Origin: Eubacteriales bacterium | Lineage (GTDB): Bacteria > Bacillota > Clostridia > Oscillospirales > CAG-272 | Length of the DNA stretch: 64,000 nucleotides | Direction of reading: 5' to 3' | NCBI GenBank assembly: GCA_045657225.1 | Contig: JAZOSR010000035.1 | Location: 20,953 to 84,952 of the forward strand | In this document: positions 11,799-36,682 of the stretch, piece by piece | How positions within the stretch are numbered: the first letter of the stretch is position 1 | Layout: the number at the start of each line of letters is the position of its first letter | Notes under the pieces: model-generated | Database searches by the model: none | What the model saw: only the letters and a program-made list of their open reading frames with translations | What the model was told of the DNA's origin: nothing | Program-made: the position numbers and the translations under genes

Positions 11799-11813
11799 AT
11801 TTTGTAGATATTT
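11799..11813 (+). repeat. left copy of 15-bp direct repeat ATTTTGTAGATATTT (candidate attL / element end)
   Basis: Exact match to 26574-26588; continues cGCAAA vs tGCtAAA. Confidence 0.8.
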
Positions 11814-11841
11814 CGCAAATGTCAACCCCCTATTTTAGAAA

Positions 11842-12900
11842 TTAAGCAAATTTTTTTATGCCGAGGGTGGAGAGCTCGGCGTGGAAGCGTTCTCTTGCGG
11901 TGTCCCAATTAAAGAGCTGGCGGGGCATATCGTTAAGATAATCGCATGCCTCGGCTATCTCATTATCGCTATAATTGGCTATGGGAACGCCCTTTTTAAT
12001 GAAGCGGCGGAGGATCCTATTTTGGTTCTCGTTGCTCCCTCGTTCAGAACTGCAATACGGATGGCAATAAAAGACCGACGTGCGGACGGAATTACCTCTC
12101 CTCGATAATTCCATCCTGCGCCAGTCTGCAAACTCGCTGCCATTGTCACAAGTGATCGTCTTGAAGATCTTACGAAATTTAGTGATACCGAGCTGTTTTT
12201 CGAGCTTATCCAGGACGGCGACGGTGGAGGCGGCACTTTTATCCGTCGCACGAAAAACAAGCTCAAATCGCGTTTTTCGCTCCGTTAAGACCAACAACGT
12301 ATTACCGTGCCGTTTTGTGCCTATGACGCTATCAAGCTCCCAATGACCAAATTCCTCACGCTGCAGCACGTGCGGCGGACGCAGATCAATACAAGTACCG
12401 CGAGGTGGATTTTTTACCTTTTCCACCTTGCGGTATTTTCTTTTTCTCATGCCGCGGCAAACGAGATCCTTATTGGTGAGGCGGCGGAAATATCCCTTGT
12501 CGATATAGTGATAAAGCGTTGTGACACAGATCTGTGTTTTCACCGGGATCTGTTCACGTCTGATCGTTGCGAGAGCGACTGCCGGGGAGAGCTTGCGCTT
12601 AAGGATCAGCTCCTCGATCGTGCGGAGGGTATCGTGATCATTGCTGATCTTTGGCTGCGCTCCCCGGGCCTCTTTATTGAAATCTGCGTTTCTTTGTGCC
12701 AGATCTGCACTATATTTCTTTGTTTCGGTCCAATCATGATTACGATGCATGTAATAACCGCGTTTCAGCTCGTAATAGATTGCCGGATTAGAATAGCCGA
12801 GGATCTGTGAGATTTTTACGGCATTCAAATGAAGCACATTATACATGCGCTCGATCGTCTTTCTTACCTCATACGTCATTCGTTTGTAACCCATTGTCAA
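11842..12900 (-). CDS. IS30-family DDE transposase
   Basis: 352 aa; N-terminal HTH, then GHWELDSV (D), ITCDNGSEF (D), SERGSNENQNRILRRFIKKG (E) - the IS30 DDE spacing and motifs. Confidence 0.92.
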   Translation of the reverse strand: MTMGYKRMTYEVRKTIERMYNVLHLNAVKISQILGYSNPAIYYELKRGYYMHRNHDWTETKKYSADLAQRNADFNKEARGAQPKISNDHDTLRTIEELILKRKLSPAVALATIRREQIPVKTQICVTTLYHYIDKGYFRRLTNKDLVCRGMRKRKYRKVEKVKNPPRGTCIDLRPPHVLQREEFGHWELDSVIGTKRHGNTLLVLTERKTRFELVFRATDKSAASTVAVLDKLEKQLGITKFRKIFKTITCDNGSEFADWRRMELSRRGNSVRTSVFYCHPYCSSERGSNENQNRILRRFIKKGVPIANYSDNEIAEACDYLNDMPRQLFNWDTARERFHAELSTLGIKKFA

Positions 12901-13065
12901 GTGCTCCTTTCACCAAAAAGGCGGAAGGCGGTGGGGCGGCGCCGGCTAACCCGCCTTGGCGCGCGCCCCACACTCGCCATTCCGCCCACTCTTTTGTTTG
13001 AAATTCCTTTTGTCCCTGTAGCCAGACCCTTGACAATCGGGTGCTTTTGCGATCTCTCCCACAGA

Positions 13066-13197
13066 TGAAAATAAGCCCGAAAGGAGGTGATAAGATGGGA
13101 TACTTACGTATATGCAACTGGATCTGCACTCACAGCCAAATGATTGTTGATCTAATTGCAAAGATGCTCGTCATCTTATAAACCCTTACGGGCTTGT
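13066..13197 (-). ncRNA. candidate cis-antisense (antitoxin-like) RNA A; ends approximate
   Basis: Predicted start about 7 nt downstream of the antisense -10; would be fully complementary to the 28-codon ORF and its SD; a weak hairpin plus U-rich run (CCTTTCGGGCTTATTTT) lies opposite the SD region. Confidence 0.4.
13095..13181 (+). CDS. 28-aa peptide, candidate type I toxin (copy A): MGYLRICNWICTHSQMIVDLIAKMLVIL
   Basis: Strong SD AAGGAGGTGATAAG before ATG; same-length homologous ORF at 18009-18095 with several synonymous third-position differences; followed by a 9-bp-stem hairpin. Confidence 0.55.
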   Translation: MGYLRICNWICTHSQMIVDLIAKMLVIL

Positions 13198-13203
13198 GGG
13201 ATT

Positions 13204-13232
13204 ATTATATCACACAAGCCCCTTCTTGTCAA
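13204..13232 (-). promoter_or_regulatory. consensus antisense promoter TTGACA-17-TATAAT convergent on peptide ORF A
   Basis: Minus strand: TTGACA (13227-13232), 17-nt spacer, TATAAT (13204-13209); the -10 lies in the loop of the hairpin after the ORF stop. Conserved in copy B. Confidence 0.65.
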
Positions 13233-13649
13233 GCCTTGGGGTGGAAAACCTTATCCGCGGTTTTCCCCAACACCACACCGTGGTGTCGGTGCCCCTTTCC
13301 CTGCGAGGTGTTTCATAACGCTCTCGCAAACTCAAAAGTGGGGTATATAACGGTTTTTCTAACTTTTCTCTGACACGCGGGGAGAAAACTTAAAAAAGCC
13401 GTTACATCTTCCCGAGGTCTAAACGACCTCGTTTTGATTTTACTCACTCGTTATGTAGCTCCGCTATCAAGGAAGTGAAGGCAAGGCGCAAGCGCCTTAC
13501 TTTCACTTCCCATTTCCATTTTTGGGGAGGCGCCGTCTGCGGACGGCGGCGCGGAGTTGGTTGCCGCGTACGTTCATCAACAGCGACCGGGGGCGGCTGA
13601 ATACCCCCGGGGTTGCAAAGCCGAACAGCAACGAAGGCAGGTGGAAAGG

Positions 13650-13763
13650 ATGGAGAACGTGAGCTTAAGCGACAAGGCAATACAACGGCTGATCGAGTTT
13701 CTCTCACGTGCCGGGTGGACCGACGCACAGATCCTTGATCTGATCAATTACGTAACGAAATAA
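13650..13763 (+). CDS. hypothetical 37-aa protein (MENVSLSDKAIQRLIEFLSRAGWTDAQILDLINYVTK)
   Basis: SD AGGTGGAAAGG before ATG 13650; followed by hairpin CGAGGAG...CTCCTCG. The 68-aa ORF-track start lies in GC-rich hairpin DNA and is unlikely. Confidence 0.5.
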   Translation: MENVSLSDKAIQRLIEFLSRAGWTDAQILDLINYVTK

Positions 13764-13919
13764 AAAATACCCGAGGAGCCCTAACTCCTCGAGTATTCCA
13801 CATATTGCAGATGGGGTGCGAGCCTGCCCGCATCCTGTCTGCCAACCCTGTATGCACAGTATACCACAAACAAATCTATTTGTCAAGCCCCGGGTTTTCC
13901 CGGGCGGAAAGGAAGAAAA

Positions 13920-14102
13920 ATGACCTATCAAGACCTGATCAGCGCCGGCATTGAGATCCAATGCCAAACCGTACTTTACTACTACGACTATAACCGGGAT
14001 AAGCGCGTGCTGCTTTCGCCTGCAGATGCAGCCGGCAAAGAGATCAGATACATGTACGTGGAGGACGACGTGCTTTACATCGAAGTGGAGGTGGAGCTAT
14101 GA
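13920..14102 (+). CDS. hypothetical 60-aa protein
   Basis: SD GGAAAGGAAG; stop overlaps next start (ATGA). Confidence 0.6.
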   Translation: MTYQDLISAGIEIQCQTVLYYYDYNRDKRVLLSPADAAGKEIRYMYVEDDVLYIEVEVEL

Positions 14103-14392
14103 ACGAATTCAATTTCAGCGTATTGATGAAGAAATCGCAAAACTACACGCCGAGCAGCTTGATGCACACCTATGCGCAGCAGCACCCGAGCGCAAGCTTT
14201 TGCTATGATCTGAACGGCAAGCCCTATCTGCTCATTGCCAACGTTCGCTATTACTACAAGCATTGGCGCATAATCGCCGTGTCGCCGAACAGCGAGATGG
14301 TAACCGTCTATCTCAACGATCCCCACGCACTTGTGCCTATGCCGGGCACAGAAGGTAATTGGGGTGAAAGACATTGGGGAGGTTTGAAATGA
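14099..14392 (+). CDS. hypothetical 97-aa protein
   Basis: SD GGAGGTGGAG; ATGA overlaps at both ends. Confidence 0.65.
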   Translation: MNEFNFSVLMKKSQNYTPSSLMHTYAQQHPSASFCYDLNGKPYLLIANVRYYYKHWRIIAVSPNSEMVTVYLNDPHALVPMPGTEGNWGERHWGGLK

Positions 14393-14550
14393 TCGAATTA
14401 TGGGTAAATTATTGGAGCGGAGATTTTTTCGTAGGACATTTTCCAGATATTACATCAGCTCAAAAATATTTTGAAGATCACAAGGAACGTTTTAGAGATT
14501 ATAGAGGTGAAAAATTTGGTTTCCCATACGCTACTCCATTTTTGCGCTAA
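14389..14550 (+). CDS. hypothetical 53-aa protein (MIELWVNYWSGDFFVGHFPDITSAQKYFEDHKERFRDYRGEKFGFPYATPFLR)
   Basis: Below ORF-track cutoff; found by reading on from the ATGA overlap at 14389-14392; SD GGGGAGG upstream. Confidence 0.55.
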   Translation: MIELWVNYWSGDFFVGHFPDITSAQKYFEDHKERFRDYRGEKFGFPYATPFLR

Positions 14551-14649
14551 AACAAAACATAATAGGGGGCGGTTTAACCGTCCCCGCCACCTCAAGCCCT
14601 ACTCCCTACCACTACCACATAGGGTGCTCTGCACCCGGAAAGGATTTTT

Positions 14650-14910
14650 ATGACAGAAGCTACTTACTACACCATCATACTTGTTTGTGTATCTGCTTTT
14701 GCCATTTTACATGGCATTAACTGCTTTATTCAAAGTCGAAAATATTACCAACTCACCATAGATGGTGAAACATTTCAAGTAGTATTTAATTTAGATATAA
14801 GCCGGTGGAGCAAAACCGTTACTTTCACAGATCTAAATTACATAGAGCACACTATGACTTACAACAGAATTGAACTCTATGAGATTAAGCTAAAGGAGCA
14901 TGACCAATGA
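14650..14910 (+). CDS. hypothetical 86-aa membrane-anchored protein
   Basis: SD GAAAGGA; N-terminal hydrophobic segment YYTIILVCVSAFAILHGINCFI. Confidence 0.6.
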   Translation: MTEATYYTIILVCVSAFAILHGINCFIQSRKYYQLTIDGETFQVVFNLDISRWSKTVTFTDLNYIEHTMTYNRIELYEIKLKEHDQ

Positions 14911-15002
14911 AATACTTCCTCCGTGCGCTTGAGATCCTCGGGATCCTCTCCTTCTCGCTTTTTGTGGGCTATCTGCTCTTTCTGATGGTCTACATCGTGT
15001 GA
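14907..15002 (+). CDS. hypothetical 31-aa hydrophobic micro-protein (MKYFLRALEILGILSFSLFVGYLLFLMVYIV)
   Basis: ATGA overlap with the preceding ORF; single predicted TM helix; ends 9 nt before the NTPase ATG. Confidence 0.5.
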   Translation: MKYFLRALEILGILSFSLFVGYLLFLMVYIV

Positions 15003-15011
15003 GGTGCTGCC

Positions 15012-17177
15012 ATGCTCAAGAAGCTCAAGCAAATCAACTACCGTCATTTCATTGCCGCCGGGCTGGTGCTCGGCTCGGCGGCGCTATGTGTGTTCGTTTA
15101 CAAGTACCCTTTGGTGCGTTTGTGGGAAAGCATCATTGCCTTCATCCGCGCGATCGCGTATTCCTTCATGGATCTCCTCGAGCTCCCCGAGGCGCCCGAG
15201 ATCACCCAGACCGTCAACGACTTTTCTCGGGTAGACCTCACCGGTGCGATCGGCATTGACGTTGACGAGCTCTGGCGGCGGCTCTCCGGGGTATGGTCCG
15301 AGATCTTTGTGTGGGAGCATTTTCAATACTATCTGATCTTCCTCTTGTGGCACTTCACGCGCTTCATGTATTACAGCTGCATTATCCTCTTGATCGGCGT
15401 CGTTGCCATCATTCCCGTCGTGCTTACGTGGGACGATATCAACAACGACTACAACCAGGATACCGTGCCCCTTGTGCTATTCAAGCGCTTTGTGGCAGCA
15501 CCCTGCAGGCGCGTGTTCACGTGGCTTCGGGATCTCCTGGTGTTCTTCCGTAGCTCACGATATTGGAGCTGGTTCGTGTTCGTGTGGCTCCTGAACTTCG
15601 GCGTGTTCTCGGTGGCGATCTCGTTCCTTGCCTATTACTTTTGGGCGCTGACCGCCTTTGATCTCTCCACCTTCGGCGTGCAGCTCGTCAAGCTGGCGGC
15701 GGATCTCTTGCTTATGCTGAACACGTTGCCATGGTACGCCTGGGCGGTGATCTTCGCACTCTTGTGGGATCTGTGGCGCCACCGCATTGCCGACGATAAG
15801 ATGCAGCACATGGAAGCACAAAACAAAGGGATGCTGAGCGAGATGCCCATGTGTGCCTTCGTAACGGCTCCGCCGCGTACCGGCAAGACCACGCTGATCA
15901 CCTCCATGGCGATCTCCTACGCCGCCATGTTTCGCCACAATGCCCTCGAGCTCATGACCGGGAACATGCACAAATATCCGCGCTTCCCCTGGATCAACTT
16001 TGAGCTCGATCTCAAGGACGCGATCAGAGCGCACTTCGTTTACAACCTCTATACCGCAAGGGAATGGGTCCGCACGTGGTGTGCCGGCTTCCTTGAGGAT
16101 CCTTGCCGGCAACGGCTGTGGGATTACAACATAGACCTCTATCCGACGGAATACAACGATCACCTTACCGTCACGCCGATCTGGAGAGCACTCGAGAACT
16201 ACGCCCAGGAGTTTTTTATCTACTTCATGCAAACCTCTATCCTGGTGTCTGCCTACTCGATCCGCGAGGACTTTATCTTTATTGACGAGGGGAACTTCCC
16301 GATCGTTGACACCAACTTCTTTGCGCGTGATCCCGCTGCCATCGAGGAGGACAGCAGCTACGCGCACGTCATCGACTACGACATGCTGCGTCTTGGCAAA
16401 AAAATGCTGGAGGACAACCCCAATATAGGCGCCCTCGAATTCGGCGTCGTGCTGATCCCGGAGGTAGACAAGGAGCGCAAGAACGATCTGCGTTTGCGCG
16501 AGCTGAAGCTAAAGGACGACGTCTGCACCCAAAAGAACGACCTATTTAACGAATGGATGAAGATGGCGGGGCAATCTGCCATGGTGGAGAATTTCTGCTT
16601 TTTGCGTATTCTTTCGGATGCACAACGGCCATCCTCCTGGGGCGCGGATGCGCGCGAGCTTTCGATCGTCTTGCACATTGACAAGAAGGGCGACGCTGCC
16701 AACGCCTTGCCGCTCTTCTGGGTGGAGAACGGACTTGTCGGCAAATACCTCTCCTGGTGGGATAGTGTATACGTGAACAGTCGCTTCAAATGGGGCAATA
16801 ACCGTCTGATCACGTGGCTGGGCGAGGGGCTCGGCTCCTTCCTTTATAGCTACCTCCTGCGGCGCAACAACGACTACGGCTATTGGCGGCAGAAGATCCA
16901 GAGCGAGAGCGGAACCCTTGAGAAAGAAAACCTCGAAGAATACAGCTACACGATCGCACGCAAAAAGGACTACGCCGAGCGCTTTGCCTCCGACCATTTC
17001 AAGTCCTACTCACAAATCCAGACCGCCGAGTGTCACGTGGGCCTCGGTGATCTGCCCGCTTACAACTCAATCTATCCCACGTTTGACGAAATGATCATCC
17101 AAAATTCGCACTTCTGCCGGGAACTCATTCAATACTTTGATATCGTACCGGCAGAGGAGAAAGGAGAAAGCAAATGA
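15012..17177 (+). CDS. polytopic-membrane P-loop NTPase (N-terminal ~270-aa multi-TM domain + C-terminal Walker A/B domain); DNA-translocase/assembly ATPase candidate
   Basis: 721 aa; at least four long hydrophobic stretches in residues 13-255; Walker A APPRTGKT at residues 286-293 (nt 15867-15890); Walker-B-like VVLIPEVDKE; no confident family assignment. Confidence 0.8.
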   Translation: MLKKLKQINYRHFIAAGLVLGSAALCVFVYKYPLVRLWESIIAFIRAIAYSFMDLLELPEAPEITQTVNDFSRVDLTGAIGIDVDELWRRLSGVWSEIFVWEHFQYYLIFLLWHFTRFMYYSCIILLIGVVAIIPVVLTWDDINNDYNQDTVPLVLFKRFVAAPCRRVFTWLRDLLVFFRSSRYWSWFVFVWLLNFGVFSVAISFLAYYFWALTAFDLSTFGVQLVKLAADLLLMLNTLPWYAWAVIFALLWDLWRHRIADDKMQHMEAQNKGMLSEMPMCAFVTAPPRTGKTTLITSMAISYAAMFRHNALELMTGNMHKYPRFPWINFELDLKDAIRAHFVYNLYTAREWVRTWCAGFLEDPCRQRLWDYNIDLYPTEYNDHLTVTPIWRALENYAQEFFIYFMQTSILVSAYSIREDFIFIDEGNFPIVDTNFFARDPAAIEEDSSYAHVIDYDMLRLGKKMLEDNPNIGALEFGVVLIPEVDKERKNDLRLRELKLKDDVCTQKNDLFNEWMKMAGQSAMVENFCFLRILSDAQRPSSWGADARELSIVLHIDKKGDAANALPLFWVENGLVGKYLSWWDSVYVNSRFKWGNNRLITWLGEGLGSFLYSYLLRRNNDYGYWRQKIQSESGTLEKENLEEYSYTIARKKDYAERFASDHFKSYSQIQTAECHVGLGDLPAYNSIYPTFDEMIIQNSHFCRELIQYFDIVPAEEKGESK

Positions 17178-17335
17178 CACAGCACAGCACAGCACAGCAC
17201 AGCACAGCACAGCACACCCTCGAGCGTGACATAAAGGACTATTTCAAGCTGCAGGTCGATCGGGATCCCGACGAGCTCGATCTCACCGAGATCTCCAAAG
17301 ACGTGCTTGAGATTATCAGACGTCATATAAAGTAA
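17174..17335 (+). CDS. hypothetical 53-aa protein with (CACAG)7 repeat in codons 2-13
   Basis: ATGA overlap with NTPase stop; MTQHSTAQHSTAQHTLERDIKDYFKLQVDRDPDELDLTEISKDVLEIIRRHIK. Confidence 0.55.
   Translation: MTQHSTAQHSTAQHTLERDIKDYFKLQVDRDPDELDLTEISKDVLEIIRRHIK
17178..17212 (+). repeat. perfect pentanucleotide tandem repeat (CACAG)x7
   Basis: Counted base by base from 17178 to 17212, followed by CACAC. Confidence 0.95.
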
Positions 17336-17363
17336 TACAATTCAAACGTTTAAATTGTATTAC
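17332..17363. promoter_or_regulatory. 32-nt near-perfect palindrome GTAATACAATT-CAAACGTTTA-AATTGTATTAC (terminator and/or operator upstream of the RHH gene)
   Basis: 11-bp perfect arms; one mismatched pair in the centre; 20 nt before the RHH gene ATG. Confidence 0.6.
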
Positions 17364-17382
17364 ATCCTTGTGAGGAGCGATT

Positions 17383-17619
17383 ATGTATAAACAAAGAGAT
17401 AAGCTAATCAGTATACGCGTCAATAGCAAGCTGTTGGAGCAAGTGAAAAAGATCATCGATGCCAAAACCGAGGTCAGAGAAGGTTGGGGTGCTCGTAAAA
17501 TTTATTACTACCGCGACGAAAAACGTCCCTATGAATATGATAAATTCACCATTGCAGATCTTCTCGAAGAAGCCATGGAAAAATACCTCGAGGAACAAAC
17601 ACCTTCAGCGCAAAAGTAA
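17383..17619 (+). CDS. ribbon-helix-helix (CopG/Arc-like) DNA-binding protein
   Basis: 78 aa; SD GAGGAG; N-terminal KLISIRVNSKLLEQVKKII fits the RHH beta-strand plus helix pattern. Confidence 0.7.
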   Translation: MYKQRDKLISIRVNSKLLEQVKKIIDAKTEVREGWGARKIYYYRDEKRPYEYDKFTIADLLEEAMEKYLEEQTPSAQK

Positions 17620-17667
17620 TACACGGCGCCGGAAATGTAATACACGGCGCCGGAAATGTAATACATC
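17616..17667 (+). repeat. 21-nt tandem direct repeat GTAATACACGGCGCCGGAAAT x2 plus partial third copy (iterons)
   Basis: 17616-17636 and 17637-17657 identical; 17658-17667 GTAATACATC. Confidence 0.9.
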
Positions 17668-17731
17668 ATTCAACGTCTGACAACGTATCACATTTAACCA
17701 GGGTTTTTGTATTACTTTGTGCGATCGCCAT

Positions 17732-17773
17732 ATGTAATACATTGCTGTGAGATCTCACTGCAATGTATTACAT
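17732..17773. repeat. 42-nt near-perfect palindrome ATGTAATACATTGC-TGTGAGATCTCACT-GCAATGTATTACAT
   Basis: Only one mismatched pair; carries two more GTAATAC boxes in inverted orientation. Confidence 0.8.
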
Positions 17774-17974
17774 ACTTAAGCAAACAAAAACAGCCCTCGG
17801 GCATTGCCCGGGGGCTTTTCACACTTTTGTGCATTTTGTATATTCAGAAGATCTATTTTGCGCTCCGATCGCCACGCTGCAGCGCAAGTTTTCTGTGTAT
17901 CTTGCACAACTCTCCCCGGGCTCACCCTAACCTCGTATTCACCCACTTGACACTCACGGGCTTGCATAATCCCC

Positions 17975-18111
17975 GAAAAAGGAAACAAACCCGAAGGGAG
18001 GTGATAAGATGCTATACGTACGTATATACAATTGGGTCAACGCTCATTACCACACGATCCTTGACCTAATTGTAATGCTACTCGCACACTTATAACCCCC
18101 AACGGGCTTGT
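17975..18111 (-). ncRNA. candidate cis-antisense (antitoxin-like) RNA B; ends approximate
   Basis: Starts downstream of the antisense -10; CCCTTCGGG hairpin plus TTTGTTTCCTTTTT run opposite the SD region. Confidence 0.4.
18009..18095 (+). CDS. 28-aa peptide, candidate type I toxin (copy B): MLYVRIYNWVNAHYHTILDLIVMLLAHL
   Basis: SD AGGGAGGTGATAAG; same length and frame as copy A; synonymous differences (AAC/AAT, CAC/CAT, ATT/ATC, GAT/GAC) argue for coding constraint. Confidence 0.55.
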   Translation: MLYVRIYNWVNAHYHTILDLIVMLLAHL

Positions 18112-18117
18112 GTGGTT

Positions 18118-18146
18118 ATTATATCATACAAGCCCAATCCTGTCAA
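18118..18146 (-). promoter_or_regulatory. consensus antisense promoter TTGACA-17-TATAAT convergent on peptide ORF B
   Basis: Minus strand TTGACA (18141-18146), 17 nt, TATAAT (18118-18123); same position relative to the hairpin as in copy A. Confidence 0.65.
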
Positions 18147-18176
18147 GTCCTCACCGGGGAGAGAGCTTTCGATCTA

Positions 18177-18362
18177 TTGACAATTTTCCCCTTTTGTGAT
18201 ATCCTTTTATTGTCACACAATTTCATCACAATCACAGGGGAAACTATCTTTGGTAAAAAGTGTTCCTCTCTTTTTCTCATACCCTTGTGGTTGTGGAATT
18301 GTGTGACAACAATGAGTGGACCACTTTTTCGGTGTGCCTCTCGTTGGAGGCACACTTTTTTA
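18177..18362 (+). ncRNA. candidate ~150-nt small RNA (promoter TTGACA-17-TATCCT to strong intrinsic terminator)
   Basis: TTGACA 18177-18182, TATCCT 18200-18205; terminator GTGTGCCTC-loop-GAGGCACAC (18332-18355) plus T6ATTTT; no SD-preceded ORF inside; contains ATTGTCACACAAT / ATTGTGTGACAA inverted boxes. Confidence 0.45.
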
Positions 18363-18379
18363 TTTTCGACATTTTTCAC

Positions 18380-18408
18380 TTGCACGTGCGCCTGCTTTTC
18401 GCTAAAAT
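18380..18408 (+). promoter_or_regulatory. promoter TTGCAC-17-TAAAAT for the zinc-ribbon/nuclease gene
   Basis: Read from sequence; 28 nt upstream of ATG 18436 (SD GGAGG). Confidence 0.6.
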
Positions 18409-18435
18409 ATTTTTATAAATGCTTGGAGGTTTATT

Positions 18436-19176
18436 ATGGCTGACAAACTTATTTGCCCGATCTGTGGCGAACCAACACGAATCTACATGGGAAACGCACG
18501 CAAGGACCGTCTTTGCGGCAAACATGCCGACATGCTTAAGGCAGGTGATCTGATCCTCGGCGAGGACGGAAAATTCACCCTCAAGGATGCACCAAAGCCG
18601 GAGCTGAAGGAGAGAGCTGCGGCAGAACCGGCAGCTGCTTCTGATCTGACGTGCATTATCTGCGGCGAGCCGAGTAATGGGAAGCATTTTTGTGTGAAAT
18701 GTTATCACAAATACAAAAACAAAATCATTTATCTAAAGATAAAAGATTGCGTAGAATATGAACCACTCGGTTATGAATATGAAAGTGATTTAGTATGCGA
18801 AGATGGTCACATTGTAAAAAGTGAACCCGAACGAAACATTGACAATTGGCTTTTCAATCACGATATTAAACATATTTATGAGAGAACTTATCAAGTAAAC
18901 GAAACCGTGAAATTGCGTCCTGACTGGTGCTTACCGGGTTACATCAAAGATGAAGATGGACGCCCTGTTGATGTTTATGTTGAATATTGGGGAATCGAAG
19001 GCAGTGCAAAATATGAAAATATAAAGAATTATAAACTTCCTATTTACCAACAAGAAGGATTAACGCTAATAAACATCAACGCCGAACAAGACAAACGAGA
19101 TATAAGTGCAGCTCTTGATTGGAAAGTTTGGAACAAGAAAAATATCAAACCCTATCGAATCAATTTTCTTAAATAA
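18436..19176 (+). CDS. double zinc-ribbon protein with C-terminal PD-(D/E)xK-like nuclease domain
   Basis: 246 aa; CPICG...CGKH and CIICG...CVKCYH motifs; C-terminal SEPERNIDNWL...YERTY...RPDWCLP...VYVEYWG...Y...K...Y resembles the restriction-endonuclease-like module seen at the N-terminus of some UvrD/helicase IV-like proteins (from memory). Confidence 0.75.
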   Translation: MADKLICPICGEPTRIYMGNARKDRLCGKHADMLKAGDLILGEDGKFTLKDAPKPELKERAAAEPAAASDLTCIICGEPSNGKHFCVKCYHKYKNKIIYLKIKDCVEYEPLGYEYESDLVCEDGHIVKSEPERNIDNWLFNHDIKHIYERTYQVNETVKLRPDWCLPGYIKDEDGRPVDVYVEYWGIEGSAKYENIKNYKLPIYQQEGLTLININAEQDKRDISAALDWKVWNKKNIKPYRINFLK

Positions 19177-19180
19177 GACC

Positions 19181-19214
19181 AAGGAGCTCGCCCAACTGGG
19201 CGAGCTCCTTTTGT
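19181..19214. terminator. bidirectional terminator between convergent genes
   Basis: AAGGAGCTCGCCC-AACT-GGGCGAGCTCCTT 13-bp stem, T-rich after. Confidence 0.8.
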
Positions 19215-19415
19215 TCATCGGAATTTTCTTCCGGCATTTTTAATGCCGAGATAATCCGCTTGTCCTGCCTTAATATGTGTTCCAAAGTGACTTCTTAGCA
19301 TAGCTTCCGATTCTCCATATTGATGAGCAGCAATACCAACGCCAATCCAATATGCACGACGTTGATCCGCAGAATACCTTTTTTTACTTTTGTAATTTTT
19401 TCTTGCTTTTGCCAT
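19215..19415 (-). CDS. hypothetical basic 66-aa protein
   Basis: SD AAAAGGAG 8 nt upstream of ATG; no family recognised. Confidence 0.65.
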   Translation of the reverse strand: MAKARKNYKSKKRYSADQRRAYWIGVGIAAHQYGESEAMLRSHFGTHIKAGQADYLGIKNAGRKFR

Positions 19416-19446
19416 AATTTTTCTCCTTTTATTTTTTAAAATAGGG

Positions 19447-19548
19447 TTGACAAATACCCGACTTTCGGATATACTATTAATGAGCTTGATTCTTCAAGCG
19501 CCGACTTGTGTCGGATAGATGGGGGAGAAAATCCCCCTTTTTTATTTT
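19447..19548 (+). ncRNA. candidate ~65-nt small RNA, antisense to the junction of two minus-strand genes
   Basis: Consensus-like promoter TTGACA (19447-19452)-17-TATACT (19470-19475); terminator GGGGGA-GAAAA-TCCCCC (19521-19537) plus T6ATTTT; internal CCGA..TCGG hairpin. Confidence 0.55.
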
Positions 19549-19997
19549 CGCCCTTTCATAGTTCTTAATCTTTTTCGGTTTGATTTCCCGTTTTTTCCGG
19601 AAATCAAATCTTTTTTTATGTTATTAACGTCCTTGATGGACATTTCGCTTGAAACACCCTTTCTTACAAATTTATGCCCTAATTTAATAGGTGCATCAGA
19701 ATCATCTAAAGTAAGAACAACCGGTCTATATTTTGATTTTCCCGATTGATAATTAGGCAATGCTTTCCCAGAAGACGTTCCAAGTTTAACAAGTGCCAAT
19801 TCATCAAAACGATTGCTGTCAACTACAACCGTTTTGCGATAGTTACCTTTTCCTTCATATCCAGGCTTACGATAGTTTTTTTGCCCTTTAAAATATTCAT
19901 CACGAGTATGTATAATAGTGCCATTAGGAATATTTCTCGAAACATTACGTTTAGGTTTTCCCGGATAATTTGATTTTTTGTTTGCCGTAAATATCAC
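19542..19997 (-). CDS. hypothetical very basic 151-aa protein
   Basis: Open frame with GTG start (SD AAGGAG abuts the start codon, so the exact start is uncertain); Lys/Arg/Gly/Asn-rich; no family recognised. Confidence 0.6.
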   Translation of the reverse strand: MIFTANKKSNYPGKPKRNVSRNIPNGTIIHTRDEYFKGQKNYRKPGYEGKGNYRKTVVVDSNRFDELALVKLGTSSGKALPNYQSGKSKYRPVVLTLDDSDAPIKLGHKFVRKGVSSEMSIKDVNNIKKDLISGKNGKSNRKRLRTMKGRK

Positions 19998-20078
19998 TCC
20001 TTTTGTTCAACTTGCTCTATCAGAGTGCCGTAGCTGCAGCGCGATCGCGCCGAGCTGCGGCACTCTTTGTTTTAAGAA

Positions 20079-23718: not shown

Positions 23719-25149
23719 CTAAAATGAATTATCGACACACTCAAAACAAGCAATTTTCGAACCATCACGAAAGTAAGCTCTAATCACAAAAATTTCCGTG
23801 CCGTTTATTACAGCGTCAGGCGCAATTAATTCACCATTCTCGTAACGAAATGTTGTACCATTTTCCAGAAGAACTTTATAGTAAAGCAAAACATCAAAAC
23901 GATTTCCGCCATTATCATAAATTTCATCAGTAAGCGTATTCATTACGACAAACCGTACCGCAACATTTAAACGCTGCCCAGGTATCATCACAGTAAACGG
24001 ACGATCAAGAAGCTCTTGATTAGATACTATATCTACAATTTGATGCTTGTATATTAATCGCTTGTTAAGTAACGATTCCAAGACACTTTCATCTGCATTT
24101 TCATAACCGTTAAAAATGCCTGCAGTAATATTTGCACTGACCATTAAAGCCCTATTGCATTCATCCAAAGCAATTTCACTATAGGAATTGCCACTTATTG
24201 TACTACCTGTATATAATGCCTTAGAACAAACATACGCATAAGAGGAAGCGTATGTCAAAAAGCTTTCTCCATACGGAACAAAAGCATATTGACGAACGGA
24301 TTTTTCCCCAAATTCCGCATAAGGAATTGCAACTATCACACGATTCGTATTTAACATTTTAATTCGTATCAAATAAGTGCGAAGCAACATTTCATTTAAG
24401 CCTTGTTCTTCACTGCAATTTAAGATCTCGTAATTACGACCTAATGTTAACTCTTCATTTTTAGAAAACTCCACAACCCAATCGACCACGGCAGTCATCG
24501 AACTTATTTTTTGCACCTCATCAATAGGAGCCAATAACATCTTAAACACACCACCTGCAGATACTACGTTTTGATAAAAAGTAGTATCTACATGCGCCAG
24601 AAATTTAATGCCGCCGTATTCTCCCATAGAAGCTTCGTTATAAGCAAATTCAGACGGCATCAAATAAAAGTCATTACTTGTATATGGCACAACATCCTTA
24701 TCCGCTGTAGGCGAAGAAATAGGATTAACCTTTATTTTACAGTTGGCTTCCATACCATCATAACGAAGTGTAACAATAGCCTCTCCGACTCCCACACCTT
24801 TTACGATAAAACCGTTTGCAACAGGACCGGATTCACCAATCGTTATATTTTGTTCAACAAAAACTATATCAGAGGCAGAAGATTCATATTCCCAAGGTAA
24901 TGTAACGTCCTTATGCGTCAGTTGAACGTCTATCAACCAGCTCTCTCCCAAAGTCAATTGCTTTTCCGTAGTTTGAATGACAAGCTTCGAATTAATGCTT
25001 ACCGAGCCCTGCAAATCCACAACAGAATTCTCCCGATGCATCATATATTCTTTAAGACTTTGAATCAAATTAACGGCTAAAATAATCAAAAAAACAAGTA
25101 AAACAGCCGTTACTAACAAAACAACAATTTTTTTTCGCTTTGCACTCAT
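23719..25149 (-). CDS. membrane-anchored protein with Ig-like (Big_2-type) domain
   Basis: Start set to MSAKRKKIVVLLVTAVLLVFLIILAV, whose ATG overlaps the Rep stop (ATGA). Segment DIVFVEQNITIGESGPVANGFIVKGVGVGEAIVTLRYDGMEANCKIKV resembles bacterial Ig-like group 2 domains. Confidence 0.8.
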   Translation of the reverse strand: MSAKRKKIVVLLVTAVLLVFLIILAVNLIQSLKEYMMHRENSVVDLQGSVSINSKLVIQTTEKQLTLGESWLIDVQLTHKDVTLPWEYESSASDIVFVEQNITIGESGPVANGFIVKGVGVGEAIVTLRYDGMEANCKIKVNPISSPTADKDVVPYTSNDFYLMPSEFAYNEASMGEYGGIKFLAHVDTTFYQNVVSAGGVFKMLLAPIDEVQKISSMTAVVDWVVEFSKNEELTLGRNYEILNCSEEQGLNEMLLRTYLIRIKMLNTNRVIVAIPYAEFGEKSVRQYAFVPYGESFLTYASSYAYVCSKALYTGSTISGNSYSEIALDECNRALMVSANITAGIFNGYENADESVLESLLNKRLIYKHQIVDIVSNQELLDRPFTVMIPGQRLNVAVRFVVMNTLTDEIYDNGGNRFDVLLYYKVLLENGTTFRYENGELIAPDAVINGTEIFVIRAYFRDGSKIACFECVDNSF

Positions 25150-26414
25150 TTTTTGTTTTTTCCTTTGCACTTGTAACAAATTCCAAAATTACTATCCGAT
25201 TCTACATGATCGAAAGCATGTATCGGCTTTACTTCCTGGCACTTTGCGCACAAAATTTGCTGCACACCGTTCCATATTTGAGGGCCCGGACGAGAGAACA
25301 CCGTAAACCACGGGGAGCGCTCCTCGTTTTGCTTCTGATCATTCAGCCATTCAAGCGCAATGTCCGTTTCGTTGCTCTCGCAATACTCGCGGATCATATC
25401 CGCATCAAGCTTGTCCTCATACTTGCCATGCTGGTGTATCAGATCTATGTATTTTGACGTCTGCTCGATCTGTCTTGCTTGTATCAGCTCGAAAAATTTT
25501 GTCGGGCCTAATATGGTAATTGCCGCATCAATGGCGTTACCGGCATTATTTTGCACAAAATTGACCATACGCTCCAGGTTATAGCCCTTGCCGGGCTTAC
25601 GGTACAAGGAAAGCTTTTCGGCATCCTGCAAAAACGCTTGCCAATACGGAAAACGGTGCCAAACCATTTTCTTGGGGTTGCCGCGCGCGGCGACCTCGTA
25701 ACCGTAATCAAGATAGTTTTCCATCACCCCACGGAACGCTTGTCCGAGCGTCAGCGGCGCCTCGATCTGTGTCACAGGGTCCTTGCCTATGAGGTACTTA
25801 ACAAACTCAAGCGCGCGATCGTCGCGCAGCTGCAGCTCGCAACGTACCCAGTGGGGAATGCTCTCCTTCACCTTTTCACGGTCCTCACGGCCGCGCATTT
25901 TGGAAATGCGCTCCTGCAGCTTATCGTAGATACGCACCAACAGCAACGACTTGGGTGATCCTATATCACACGACAAGCCGTTTGTGGATTCTATCACCTG
26001 GGCATAATCGGTTTTGGCTTTATATTTGTGGTTGCGCGGGCGCGTATCATCGCAAATGCGCTCAATATCCAAAACGCCGGTAAAATCATCGTAAGCAATA
26101 TCAAGACGTGTCAACTTCATAGCATTTTCGGGCTTCATTAAAGCCGCGAAAATCACGTCGTAGCTCTTATGGCTGGATTCACTTTCAAATGTGCGGCAGC
26201 CTTGACCCGAAAACTCACACCAAACGTTGTCTTGTGTGCCTCCATAATGTATGGAGATAGACCCATTATAGAAACGAGCACCATATCCGCGCACTCCTCG
26301 GTCGATCAATTGCCACCCTGAAGTAATCCCGATCAATTCCATCATATCCTCGGGGGTCATGGTCTTGCTCGTAATCGAAAGCCAGTCAATAAGAATACCG
26401 TTCTTATACTCCAT
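25146..26414 (-). CDS. rolling-circle replication initiator, Rep_trans family (PF02486-like), with C-terminal zinc ribbon
   Basis: 422 aa; IDWLSIT, RLDIAYD, IGSPKSLLLVRIYDK, VRCELQLRD motifs in the order typical of Rep_trans initiators/relaxases; C-terminal CAKC...CYKC. Confidence 0.9.
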   Translation of the reverse strand: MEYKNGILIDWLSITSKTMTPEDMMELIGITSGWQLIDRGVRGYGARFYNGSISIHYGGTQDNVWCEFSGQGCRTFESESSHKSYDVIFAALMKPENAMKLTRLDIAYDDFTGVLDIERICDDTRPRNHKYKAKTDYAQVIESTNGLSCDIGSPKSLLLVRIYDKLQERISKMRGREDREKVKESIPHWVRCELQLRDDRALEFVKYLIGKDPVTQIEAPLTLGQAFRGVMENYLDYGYEVAARGNPKKMVWHRFPYWQAFLQDAEKLSLYRKPGKGYNLERMVNFVQNNAGNAIDAAITILGPTKFFELIQARQIEQTSKYIDLIHQHGKYEDKLDADMIREYCESNETDIALEWLNDQKQNEERSPWFTVFSRPGPQIWNGVQQILCAKCQEVKPIHAFDHVESDSNFGICYKCKGKNKK

Positions 26415-26573
26415 TTTTCGCGGTACCCCCTACGACAGTGTTTTGAAGATCTGTACCCCCCTGTTAGCGGGGGGGCACCGCCCGCCCTCCGCCGCGCTTC
26501 GCGCGGCTTCGAGCGGGCATTTTTCGCCTCTCATTCGCTCCTTTGACTTTCTAAAATAGATTTTAACATTCAA

Positions 26574-26588
26574 ATTTTGTAGATATTT
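26574..26588 (+). repeat. right copy of 15-bp direct repeat ATTTTGTAGATATTT (candidate attR / element end)
   Basis: Exact match to 11799-11813. Confidence 0.8.
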
Positions 26589-26600
26589 TGCTAAAAGCTC

Positions 26601-36511: not shown

Positions 36512-36682
36512 TTAATAATCCTTCTTTTGCTGGTTCTGATTTTTGTTCTGATTGTTGTTTTGATTATTGTTCTGATTTTGGTTGTTCTGGTTGTTCTGGT
36601 TGTTTTGGTTGTTATTCTGATTATTGTTCTGATTGTTGTTCTGGTTCTTGTTGTAGTTTTGGTTCTGATTTTGGTTCTGCAT
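36512..36682 (-). CDS. 56-aa Asn/Gln-rich micro-protein (31 N + 17 Q)
   Basis: Hand translation of the minus strand: MQNQNQNQNYNKNQNNNQNNNQNNNQNNQNNQNNQNQNNNQNNNQNKNQNQQKKDY; SD AAGGGAG 8 nt upstream; own terminator; same strand as all neighbours. Below the ORF-track size cutoff. Confidence 0.6.
   Translation of the reverse strand: MQNQNQNQNYNKNQNNNQNNNQNNNQNNQNNQNNQNQNNNQNNNQNKNQNQQKKDY

Follow-up and report, generated by a model that had tools for sequence, protein, structure and literature searches.

Repeat-driven phase variation has been documented mainly in host-adapted Gram-negative pathogens and in mycoplasmas, and the on/off switches described in gut Firmicutes are mostly invertible DNA segments. 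Several described systems are close to the locus presented here. The opa genes of Neisseria carry CTCTT repeats in the leader coding region and switch at a rate of about 1e-3 per cell per generation (PMC3745409). In Haemophilus influenzae and Campylobacter, tetranucleotide or poly-G tracts are found in lic, mod and surface-structure genes (PMC6321876, PMC11868660). A CACAG repeat was proposed to modulate the expression of a restriction-modification system of type III of Pasteurella (now Mannheimia) haemolytica, according to the papers that cite this work (Ryan and Lo 1999, as cited by PMC6321876 and by PMC3874151). For pentanucleotide repeats, the PhasomeIt software applies a threshold of at least five units (PMC6321876). 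With respect to mobile elements, IS30-bound phages of gut Clostridia were described under the name IScream (PMC12823448).

The window, which is the whole stretch of 64 kb of DNA analysed here, contains a perfect (CACAG)7.8 tract (17178–17216, forward strand), for which Tandem Repeats Finder gave a period of 5 with 100% matches and which makes a candidate hypermutable switch. The tract consists of seven full CACAG units (17178–17212) followed by CACA, starts one base past an ATG (17174–17176) and spans codons 2–15 of a 53-codon ORF (17174–17335, forward strand, ORF list). This ORF is in the ON configuration in the window and encodes 53 aa, beginning with MTQHSTAQHSTAQHTLERDIK. Both the sequence and Tandem Repeats Finder confirmed the perfect (CACAG)x7 of 35 nt, one base past the ATG, that had been noticed in the preliminary description. 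In a scan of the whole window for perfect repeats (units of 2–9 nt, at least 4 copies, at least 15 nt), it was the sole perfect short-unit repeat. In 64 kb, about 2e-16 perfect period-5 runs as long as this one are expected by chance, which bears out the earlier statement that seven perfect copies are unlikely by chance. The CACAG tract itself is a real feature, beyond chance.

Directly upstream lies the gene for a 721-aa P-loop protein (15012–17177, forward strand, ORF list) with an N-terminal membrane-spanning region and the P-loop TAPPRTGKT. The label NTPase, which this protein had been given before, holds in so far as a Walker-A motif is present, but no family model matches the protein. 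Matches in Pfam, PHROG, NCBIfam, PADLOC and PDB did not go beyond weak P-loop ones, and a PDB-sequence profile search returned nothing. The AlphaFold2 model reached a pLDDT of 60 and left the P-loop core unmodelled. The protein has more than 200 homologues in metagenomes and MAGs of gut Clostridia, and the exact protein of the window was not on record in an exact-protein look-up. As had been described, the TGA of this gene (17175–17177) overlaps the ATG of the small ORF (17174–17176); the resulting ATGA (17174–17177, forward strand) is a translational-coupling arrangement. A Shine-Dalgarno-like AAAGGAG (17160–17166, forward strand) precedes the ATG by 7 nt. We also considered whether frameshifting could fuse the NTPase to the tail, and rejected this: relative to the NTPase, the frame of the tail is -1 in the window and +1 in the OFF alleles, and inspection of the sequence revealed no canonical slippery site.

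Within the tract, none of the three frames contains a stop, and every frame gives the cyclic peptide HSTAQ. Three-frame translation showed that the other two frames end at a TGA (17227–17229) and a TAA (17232–17234) on the forward strand, at most 4–6 codons past the tract, exactly where the preliminary description had placed the early stops. Features of a phase-variable locus of the simple sequence repeat type are thus found here: tandem units with a length not divisible by three lie inside the ORF and downstream of the start, and a change by one unit leads to a premature stop.

The tract together with the 53-codon ORF probably forms a slipped-strand ON/OFF phase-variation switch on a real accessory gene, and from the comparison of sequences we assign this reading a probability of roughly 75%. 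According to this model, a slippage-prone simple sequence repeat would have been placed right behind the start codon of a lineage-specific accessory gene, and translation of the small protein would be coupled to the upstream membrane NTPase gene by the ATGA overlap together with its own Shine-Dalgarno motif. Units of 5 nt gained or lost during DNA replication would decide whether or not the conserved tail is in the frame of the ATG. The protein would be made with 7 full units, as in the window, or with 10, as in the relative L095, and by arithmetic 4 or 13 units would also be in frame. With other unit numbers, the ribosome would stop after about 16–26 codons, and the tail would not be made. 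We further infer that the small protein is translated, that switching within a clone is frequent and reversible, and that ON/OFF heterogeneity benefits the element or the host, for example by modulating the activity of the NTPase or of the mobile element.

Among relatives from metagenomes, tract lengths by lineage are 27, 28, 34, 39 (window), 51 and 55 nt. A repeat number invariant across homologues had been named beforehand as evidence against a switch, and these lengths of 27–55 nt show that it varies. With 7.8 units in the window and 5.4–11 in relatives, the tracts exceed the PhasomeIt cut-off for pentanucleotides. Three lineages (window, L095 and L096) have the ATG and the tail in one frame, and in three others (L092/L093, L088 and L089/L091) the ATG is out of frame; the tails are intact in all of them. 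Such a length polymorphism between in-frame and out-of-frame alleles of an otherwise intact gene, seen here in 3 ON and 3 OFF lineages, is a mark of phase-variable loci. The earlier suggestion that a change in unit number acts as an ON/OFF switch is hence supported by a conserved tail frame combined with a tract length that varied among relatives.

How these counts are to be read depends on how the relatives were found. Those retrieved via the NTPase are unbiased for ON and OFF, and those retrieved via the small protein are biased towards ON; the sample holds six distinct repeat-bearing DNA alleles, three of which came from a search able to find in-frame alleles only. The repeat-bearing relatives found via the NTPase are all OFF, namely L092=L093 (95% NTPase identity, 28 nt), L088 (77%, 27 nt) and L089=L091 (75%, 55 nt). 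Thus, three of the four lineages sampled without ON/OFF bias are OFF, and the window with its 39 nt is ON. The relatives found via the small protein are all ON (L095 with 51 nt, L096 with 34 nt and P0149 with about 13 units). Translation from the ATG of the OFF alleles would end at equivalent stops after 16–26 codons.

A different reading holds that such OFF alleles are expressed from an alternative TTG in the 3' end of the NTPase gene, and that changes in the repeat merely swap N-termini. The tail frame of L092 and L088 is indeed open back to a TTG located 37–49 nt upstream of the ATG, where a product of 61 aa had been annotated by a gene caller. However, no Shine-Dalgarno motif precedes these TTGs, the third frame would stay off in any case, and the corresponding TTG frame of the window (17137–17229) stops at the TGA directly past the tract. 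Moreover, the tail frame of L089/L091 lacks a start codon altogether, and since neither ATG, GTG nor TTG occurs anywhere in the open tail frame of L089, this allele would be truly off. Expression from an alternative TTG is therefore considered very unlikely.

The length differences could also stem from assembly or sequencing artefacts, or the tract could act at the level of DNA or RNA, as a protein-binding site or a spacer, with an incidental effect on coding. The tract, or its edge, is where three Logan contigs (L001, L002 and L090) break off, which shows that assemblers struggle with it. Against an artefact, these breaks would fit a loop in a k=31 graph, and tracts of 27–55 nt are shorter than the k=141 of the ENA contigs, as judged by the k141_ prefix of their names. 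Identical tracts were also recovered from independent assemblies (L089=L091 and L092=L093). A point against the proposed switch is that no variation of the tract was seen between contigs from different samples with a 100% identical backbone (L089=L091=L090 and L092=L093); these may represent one strain or even a repeated assembly of one data set, and their agreement speaks neither for nor against switching at 1e-3 to 1e-5. As regards an action at the DNA or RNA level, the tract in relatives always begins 0–6 nt past the start codon of the same ORF, and this constant onset indicates a coding role. We judge this explanation to have a very small chance of being correct.

The surroundings of the start codon are similar among relatives. 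The ATGA is kept in L092, L088, L095, L097 and L098, and is replaced by TAATG in L089 and by TGATG in L096. The context aaaggagaaa..ATG is common to L092, L095, L096, L097 and L098.

Behind the tract, tblastn matches in relatives delimit a conserved tail of 38 residues, LERDIKDYFKLQVDRDPDELDLTEISKDVLEIIRRHIK (17219–17332, forward strand), which is regarded as the functional part of the 53-aa protein. In the tail frame, pairwise dN/dS was 0.03–0.48 for every pair among seven alleles, and the other two frames contain stops. As judged from these substitutions, the tail of the 53-codon ORF is a conserved coding sequence under purifying selection. An AlphaFold2 model of the 53-aa protein showed helices at residues 3–28 and 37–52 with a mean pLDDT of 86; the tail is predicted to form a helix-loop-helix, and the product is predicted to be an acidic two-helix protein. 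An orthologue of 45 aa without the repeat exists (L097, P0148 and P0151), and because of this, the tail alone would represent the ancestral protein. The dN/dS values, the stops in the other frames, the repeat-less orthologue and the confident predicted fold are what is expected of a genuine coding gene. The small ORF had no match in Pfam, PHROGs, NCBIfam or PADLOC, and Foldseek of its model against the PDB gave insignificant matches only (E above 8). An exact-protein look-up of the small ORF found no record, and an identical 53-aa protein (P0145) was traced to an NCBI assembly. One further protein, P0158, carries (HSTAQ)5 followed by an unrelated tail and might come from a family member that is read out of frame.

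These data also bear on a neutral reading, in which a hypermutable microsatellite slips within a dispensable accessory ORF and its alleles drift between frames without selected bet-hedging while the locus is heading for loss. In agreement with this, the small gene is entirely lost from the close relative L094 (88% NTPase identity) and is therefore dispensable. The OFF state of three among the four lineages from the unbiased sampling, and a small protein to which no function could be assigned by Pfam, PHROGs, PADLOC or Foldseek against the PDB, point in the same direction. However, purifying selection acts on the tail even between OFF alleles: the OFF pair L092/L088 differs by 4 synonymous and 1 non-synonymous change in the tail (dN/dS 0.06). 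OFF states would thus be recent or transient and not old pseudogenes, because OFF tails are intact and dN/dS is low. A long perfect 5-nt repeat is also kept at the same codon position though the NTPases differ by 20–25%, and since a repeat-less orthologue exists, the repeat appears as an acquired feature that has persisted. In L098, an (AACAG)7 tract takes the same position behind the same ATGA and encodes NRTEQ, not HSTAQ. This replacement of CACAG by AACAG left period and perfection unchanged, and therefore it would be the 5-nt repeat that was retained, not the peptide. As far as these sequences tell, a change of the unit sequence, and with it of the encoded peptide, has left the 5-nt periodicity intact. 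Neutral drift thus appears unlikely, and a slipped-strand switch remains the preferred explanation. For such a switch, the state of 5 full units, which is carried by both OFF alleles L092 and L088, could be fairly stable.

The small gene and the NTPase gene sit on an island with an IS30 transposase in a gut Clostridia bacterium. The IS30-family transposase gene (11842–12897) faces outward at one end of the island. A tblastn search of the window with this transposase found no second IS30 copy, and the arrangement of IScream with IS30 at both ends is thus not seen; besides the transposase gene, there are only short inverted-repeat-like copies, at 19429–19458 and 26542–26594. A rolling-circle Rep of the Rep_trans type (25146–26411) provides an initiator as expected for a filamentous-phage-like element. 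In distant relatives, a Rep of Pfam PF23343 (ORF2/G2P type) adjoins the NTPase. A gene order of a large secreted protein, small membrane proteins and the NTPase is conserved. A pI/Zot ATPase was not recognised, as the 721-aa NTPase and 23 homologues showed no Zot match (PF05707) and only weak P-loop matches in Pfam. No PHROG structural protein matched on the island. The island may be related to filamentous phages.

Searches for the element elsewhere yielded little. The DNA of positions 13000–20000 had no match among GenBank phages and PLSDB plasmids, and tblastn of the NTPase against phages found a single unannotated faecal contig. In IMG/VR, patterns from close relatives gave 0 loci and a broader alignment gave 2 distant loci; a scan of the same collection with a DNA motif of the tail gave no match. 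Scans of the window for tRNA and Rfam families were empty. Contigs of about 5.7 kb were considered as circular genomes, an idea that was rejected since none had a terminal overlap. One can speculate that the 53-aa protein, being phase-variable, stochastically regulates either the orphan membrane NTPase or how active an undescribed IS30-mobilised, rolling-circle, filamentous-phage-like element of gut Clostridia is. By means of the slipped-strand switch, the element itself would hedge its bets, with quiescence on one side and, for example, particle production or transfer on the other, but we consider this improbable. If it were true, the contingency locus would serve a mobile element and not a surface structure of the host.

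The findings argue for a slipped-strand locus on a mobile element in an uncultured lineage of gut Clostridia, backed by comparative data. The locus is tied to an unannotated NTPase family with hundreds of members and points to an uncharacterised element family worth describing. With filamentous ssDNA phages (Inoviridae, Plectroviridae) and IScream, the island shares a rolling-circle Rep, a conserved gene order and a terminal IS30 transposase, and it differs by an NTPase without a Zot/pI match and by one IS30 gene instead of one per end. The Mannheimia mod system, as far as the citing papers describe it, has the identical unit CACAG, but the gene (restriction-modification), the organism and the genomic context are unrelated, and the genes have no homology; the shared unit is a coincidence or a generally slippage-prone motif. 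The CACAG locus shares its principle with the loci of Haemophilus and Campylobacter: a hypermutable simple repeat lies within the ORF, expression depends on the frame, as proposed here, and both ON and OFF alleles are found among strains. The units are of another length there and the genes of other classes, namely chromosomal ones for surface structures or restriction-modification, whereas the CACAG locus sits on an island bearing an IS30 transposase and is coupled to an orphan NTPase. In Neisseria opa, too, a 5-nt unit lies within the first codons of an ORF, the number of units restores or disrupts the frame and leads to translational ON/OFF switching (PMC3745409), and no frame of the repeat contains a stop, so that translation runs through. 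The opa system belongs to a Gram-negative pathogen and concerns an outer-membrane adhesin of a multigene family, with the repeat in a functional signal peptide and a measured rate, whereas the CACAG locus of gut Clostridia concerns a single-copy, cytoplasmic-type acidic protein of 53 aa on a mobile element. The mechanism is already known, and to judge by these parallels the CACAG locus looks like a new example of slipped-strand phase variation.

Across the start of the small open reading frame (ORF), the sequence read from 16800 to 17700 runs AAAGGAGAAAGCAA ATG A (CACAG)x7 CACA CCCTCGAGCGTGACATAAAGG. The CACAG tract lies at 17178-17216 (Tandem Repeats Finder: period 5, 7.8 copies, 100% matches). 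When the whole window was scanned for perfect repeats (unit size 2-9 nt, four or more copies, 15 nt or longer), it was the sole match; by chance, about 2e-16 runs like this tract are expected in 64 kb. The start codon (ATG, 17174) shares bases with the TGA stop (17175-17177) of the gene for a 721-aa P-loop protein, here called NTPase, and the product of the 53-codon ORF 17174-17335 is MTQHSTAQHSTAQHTLERDIKDYFKLQVDRDPDELDLTEISKDVLEIIRRHIK, whose last 38 residues form a conserved tail after the tract. The remaining two frames end at TGA 17227 and TAA 17232. Sequence reading, Tandem Repeats Finder and frame translation thereby bear out all that the preliminary description had stated as fact on the tract, the overlap, the ORF and the alternative-frame stops.

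It is likely, with a probability of roughly three in four, that the tract is a working slipped-strand ON/OFF switch. Because the unit is 5 nt long, every slippage event would change the frame, and since no frame of a CACAG or AACAG repeat contains a stop codon, ribosomes would pass along the tract and continue in the downstream frame that its length sets. The tail would be reached only by unit counts equal to 7 modulo 3, such as 7 in the window and 10 in the related locus L095, and the other two count classes would terminate 4-6 codons past the tract. The ATGA overlap, replaced by TAATG or TGATG in other lineages, and the conserved AAAGGAG before the start would couple expression of the small ORF to NTPase. 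NTPase itself would never be altered by slippage, because the tract begins after its stop codon.

Relatives with the small ORF were mostly obtained by exact-protein look-ups of NTPase homologues and small-ORF homologues; loci L003-L087 were found by scanning collections of genome and metagenome contigs with patterns. Invariance of the repeat number across homologues had been named beforehand as evidence against a switch; the tracts in fact vary between 27 and 55 nt among lineages. The window allele (39 nt) has its ATG in frame with the tail (ON, 53 aa), as do L095 (51 nt, 57 aa) and L096 (34 nt, 54 aa). In the identical loci L092 and L093 (NTPase identity 95%, tract 28 nt), the ATG frame stops after 16 codons (MTQHSTAQHSTPSSAS*) and the tail is intact in frame +2; L088 (77%, 27 nt) is out of frame (OFF) in the same way with an intact tail. 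The identical loci L089 and L091 (75%, 55 nt, 11.0 units) are OFF after 26 codons, and their open tail frame is devoid of any ATG, GTG or TTG. Locus L098 carries (AACAG)7 after the same ATGA and is ON (53 aa), with the N-terminus NRTEQNRTEQNR in place of HSTAQ. Here the unit is swapped and period, perfection and position are unchanged, which argues that the repeat itself is retained and not the encoded peptide.

Among further family members, P0149 (63 aa, about 13 units, ON), P0151 and P0152 are known as proteins only, and L097 encodes 45 aa without a repeat (MTDLNQLILERAIK...). A GC-rich hairpin (GCCCTCGGGCATTGCCCGGGGGC) that closes the NTPase operon is conserved in L092 (4950-4990), L094 (5341-5380) and the window (17789-17817). 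In L094 (NTPase identity 88%) it directly follows the NTPase TGA, so small ORF and repeat are precisely absent there; both are also absent from NTPase relatives whose C-terminal 200 residues are at most 56% identical. Of the six DNA alleles with a repeat, three came from a protein search able to return in-frame alleles only, and the ON:OFF ratio in the unbiased set is 1:3. Where contigs from different samples had backbones that were 100% identical (L089, L090 and L091; L092 and L093), their tracts did not differ either, so variation is seen only between lineages whose flanks also differ by point substitutions (about 4% or more). The Logan contigs L001, L002 and L090 terminate at or inside the tract, for which the k=31 assembly graph is a better explanation than heterogeneity. 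The small-ORF profile also matched unrelated proteins (P0154-P0172) through HSTAQ-like segments, for instance P0158, in which an unrelated 18-residue tail comes after (HSTAQ)5; such proteins may be out-of-frame products or stem from other genes with CACAG-type repeats.

Pairwise Nei-Gojobori dN/dS over 36 shared tail codons was 0.03-0.48 in all 21 pairs, and stops are present in the tail's two other frames in every allele. The OFF-OFF pair L092/L088 differs by 4 synonymous versus 1 non-synonymous changes, with a neutral probability of about 0.01 by hand calculation from 24 synonymous and 84 non-synonymous sites. The tail is thus under purifying selection even where the lineage consensus is now out of frame, which is predicted by a reversible switch and not by an old pseudogene. 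A TTG inside the NTPase gene of L092 and L088 might alternatively start the tail: it is in frame and was chosen by the gene caller but lacks a Shine-Dalgarno motif, and its use is considered an annotation artefact. The ON/OFF reading proposed in the preliminary description is thus supported by in-frame and out-of-frame alleles together with a selected tail. The small protein is predicted to fold as a helix-loop-helix (AlphaFold2, mean pLDDT 86); searches of Pfam, PHROGs, PADLOC and Foldseek gave no function.

The N-terminal third of NTPase (15012-17177) is helical and of membrane type, and the protein contains a Walker-A motif (TAPPRTGKT). Only weak P-loop matches were found in Pfam, PHROGs, NCBIfam, PADLOC and PDB sequences, and its AlphaFold2 model is poor (pLDDT 60). 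Its homologues, over 200 and each either unnamed or hypothetical, occur in gut metagenomes and metagenome-assembled genomes of Clostridia, Christensenellales and Oscillospiraceae. Distant relatives keep the order large secreted protein, small (membrane) proteins, NTPase, IS30 transposase, and NTPase is often followed by a gene for a PF23343 Rep (Pfam), the type of plectrovirus ORF2 and inovirus G2P. The family (loci L003-L100) may mark a filamentous-phage-related element that has yet to be described.

In the window, the NTPase gene belongs to an island that spans roughly 14.8 kb (about 11.80-26.60 kb), flanked by metallophosphoesterase and trigger factor genes. It carries an outward-facing IS30-family transposase (11842-12897, minus strand; NCBIfam E 3.6e-63) and a Rep_trans rolling-circle initiator (25146-26411, minus strand); several secreted or membrane island proteins had no family match. 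The layout is similar to that of a filamentous phage, yet the island was not assigned there for lack of the defining match to a Zot/pI ATPase. Membership in the recently described IS30-bound "IScream" phages of gut Clostridia (PMC12823448) is not supported either, given only one IS30 gene and no recognisable tailed-phage genes. Imperfect inverted-repeat copies lie near 11812-11845, 19429-19458 and 26542-26594, and GC content falls from 50% to about 40% near 18 kb.

Two 176-nt direct repeats (13058-13233 and 17972-18147; 76% identical) each hold a Shine-Dalgarno motif, a 28-codon hydrophobic peptide ORF (13095-13181; 18009-18095) and a minus-strand promoter that is convergent and matches TTGACA-17-TATAAT perfectly (13232-13204; 18146-18118), a layout resembling type I toxin-antitoxin modules. 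Palindromes containing GTAATACA (17332-17363; 17731-17774) and a 21-bp x2.6 tandem repeat (17612-17665), probably operator or iteron sites, flank an Arc-like (ribbon-helix-helix) gene of 78 aa (17383-17619); this module (17332-17780) is wholly missing in L092 and L094, both close relatives. Encoded at 18436-19176 is a 246-aa protein that has CxxC zinc ribbons and is possibly nuclease cargo of the island; its C-terminal half is matched by two PADLOC candidate defence models, PDC-S69 (1.2e-16) and HEAT_CxxC_PD-DEXK (5.6e-11), and its homologues are found with NTPase in 17 loci. Elsewhere, a degenerate tandem repeat at 36530-36679 (unit GTTCTGATTGTT, about 12 copies) has periods of 12, 9 and 18 nt and, because these are multiples of three, is possibly coding low-complexity sequence.

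In its anatomy the small-ORF locus matches classical translational phase variation such as Neisseria opa, whose leader-peptide coding region contains CTCTT pentamers and whose switching rate is about 1e-3 per cell per generation (PMC3745409). As Ryan and Lo (1999) are cited in PMC6321876 and PMC3874151, a CACAG unit was described in a restriction-modification system of type III from Pasteurella (now Mannheimia) haemolytica; to the extent of those citations, the window tract shares this unit. PhasomeIt regards pentanucleotide tracts of at least five units as potentially phase variable (PMC6321876), and the locus has every sequence-level feature by which a phase-variable locus is recognised. This kind of switch is already known, and the locus is, judged by its sequence, a further example; its setting is what is new: in a mobile element of gut Clostridia, an orphan NTPase has a tiny acidic protein coupled to it.
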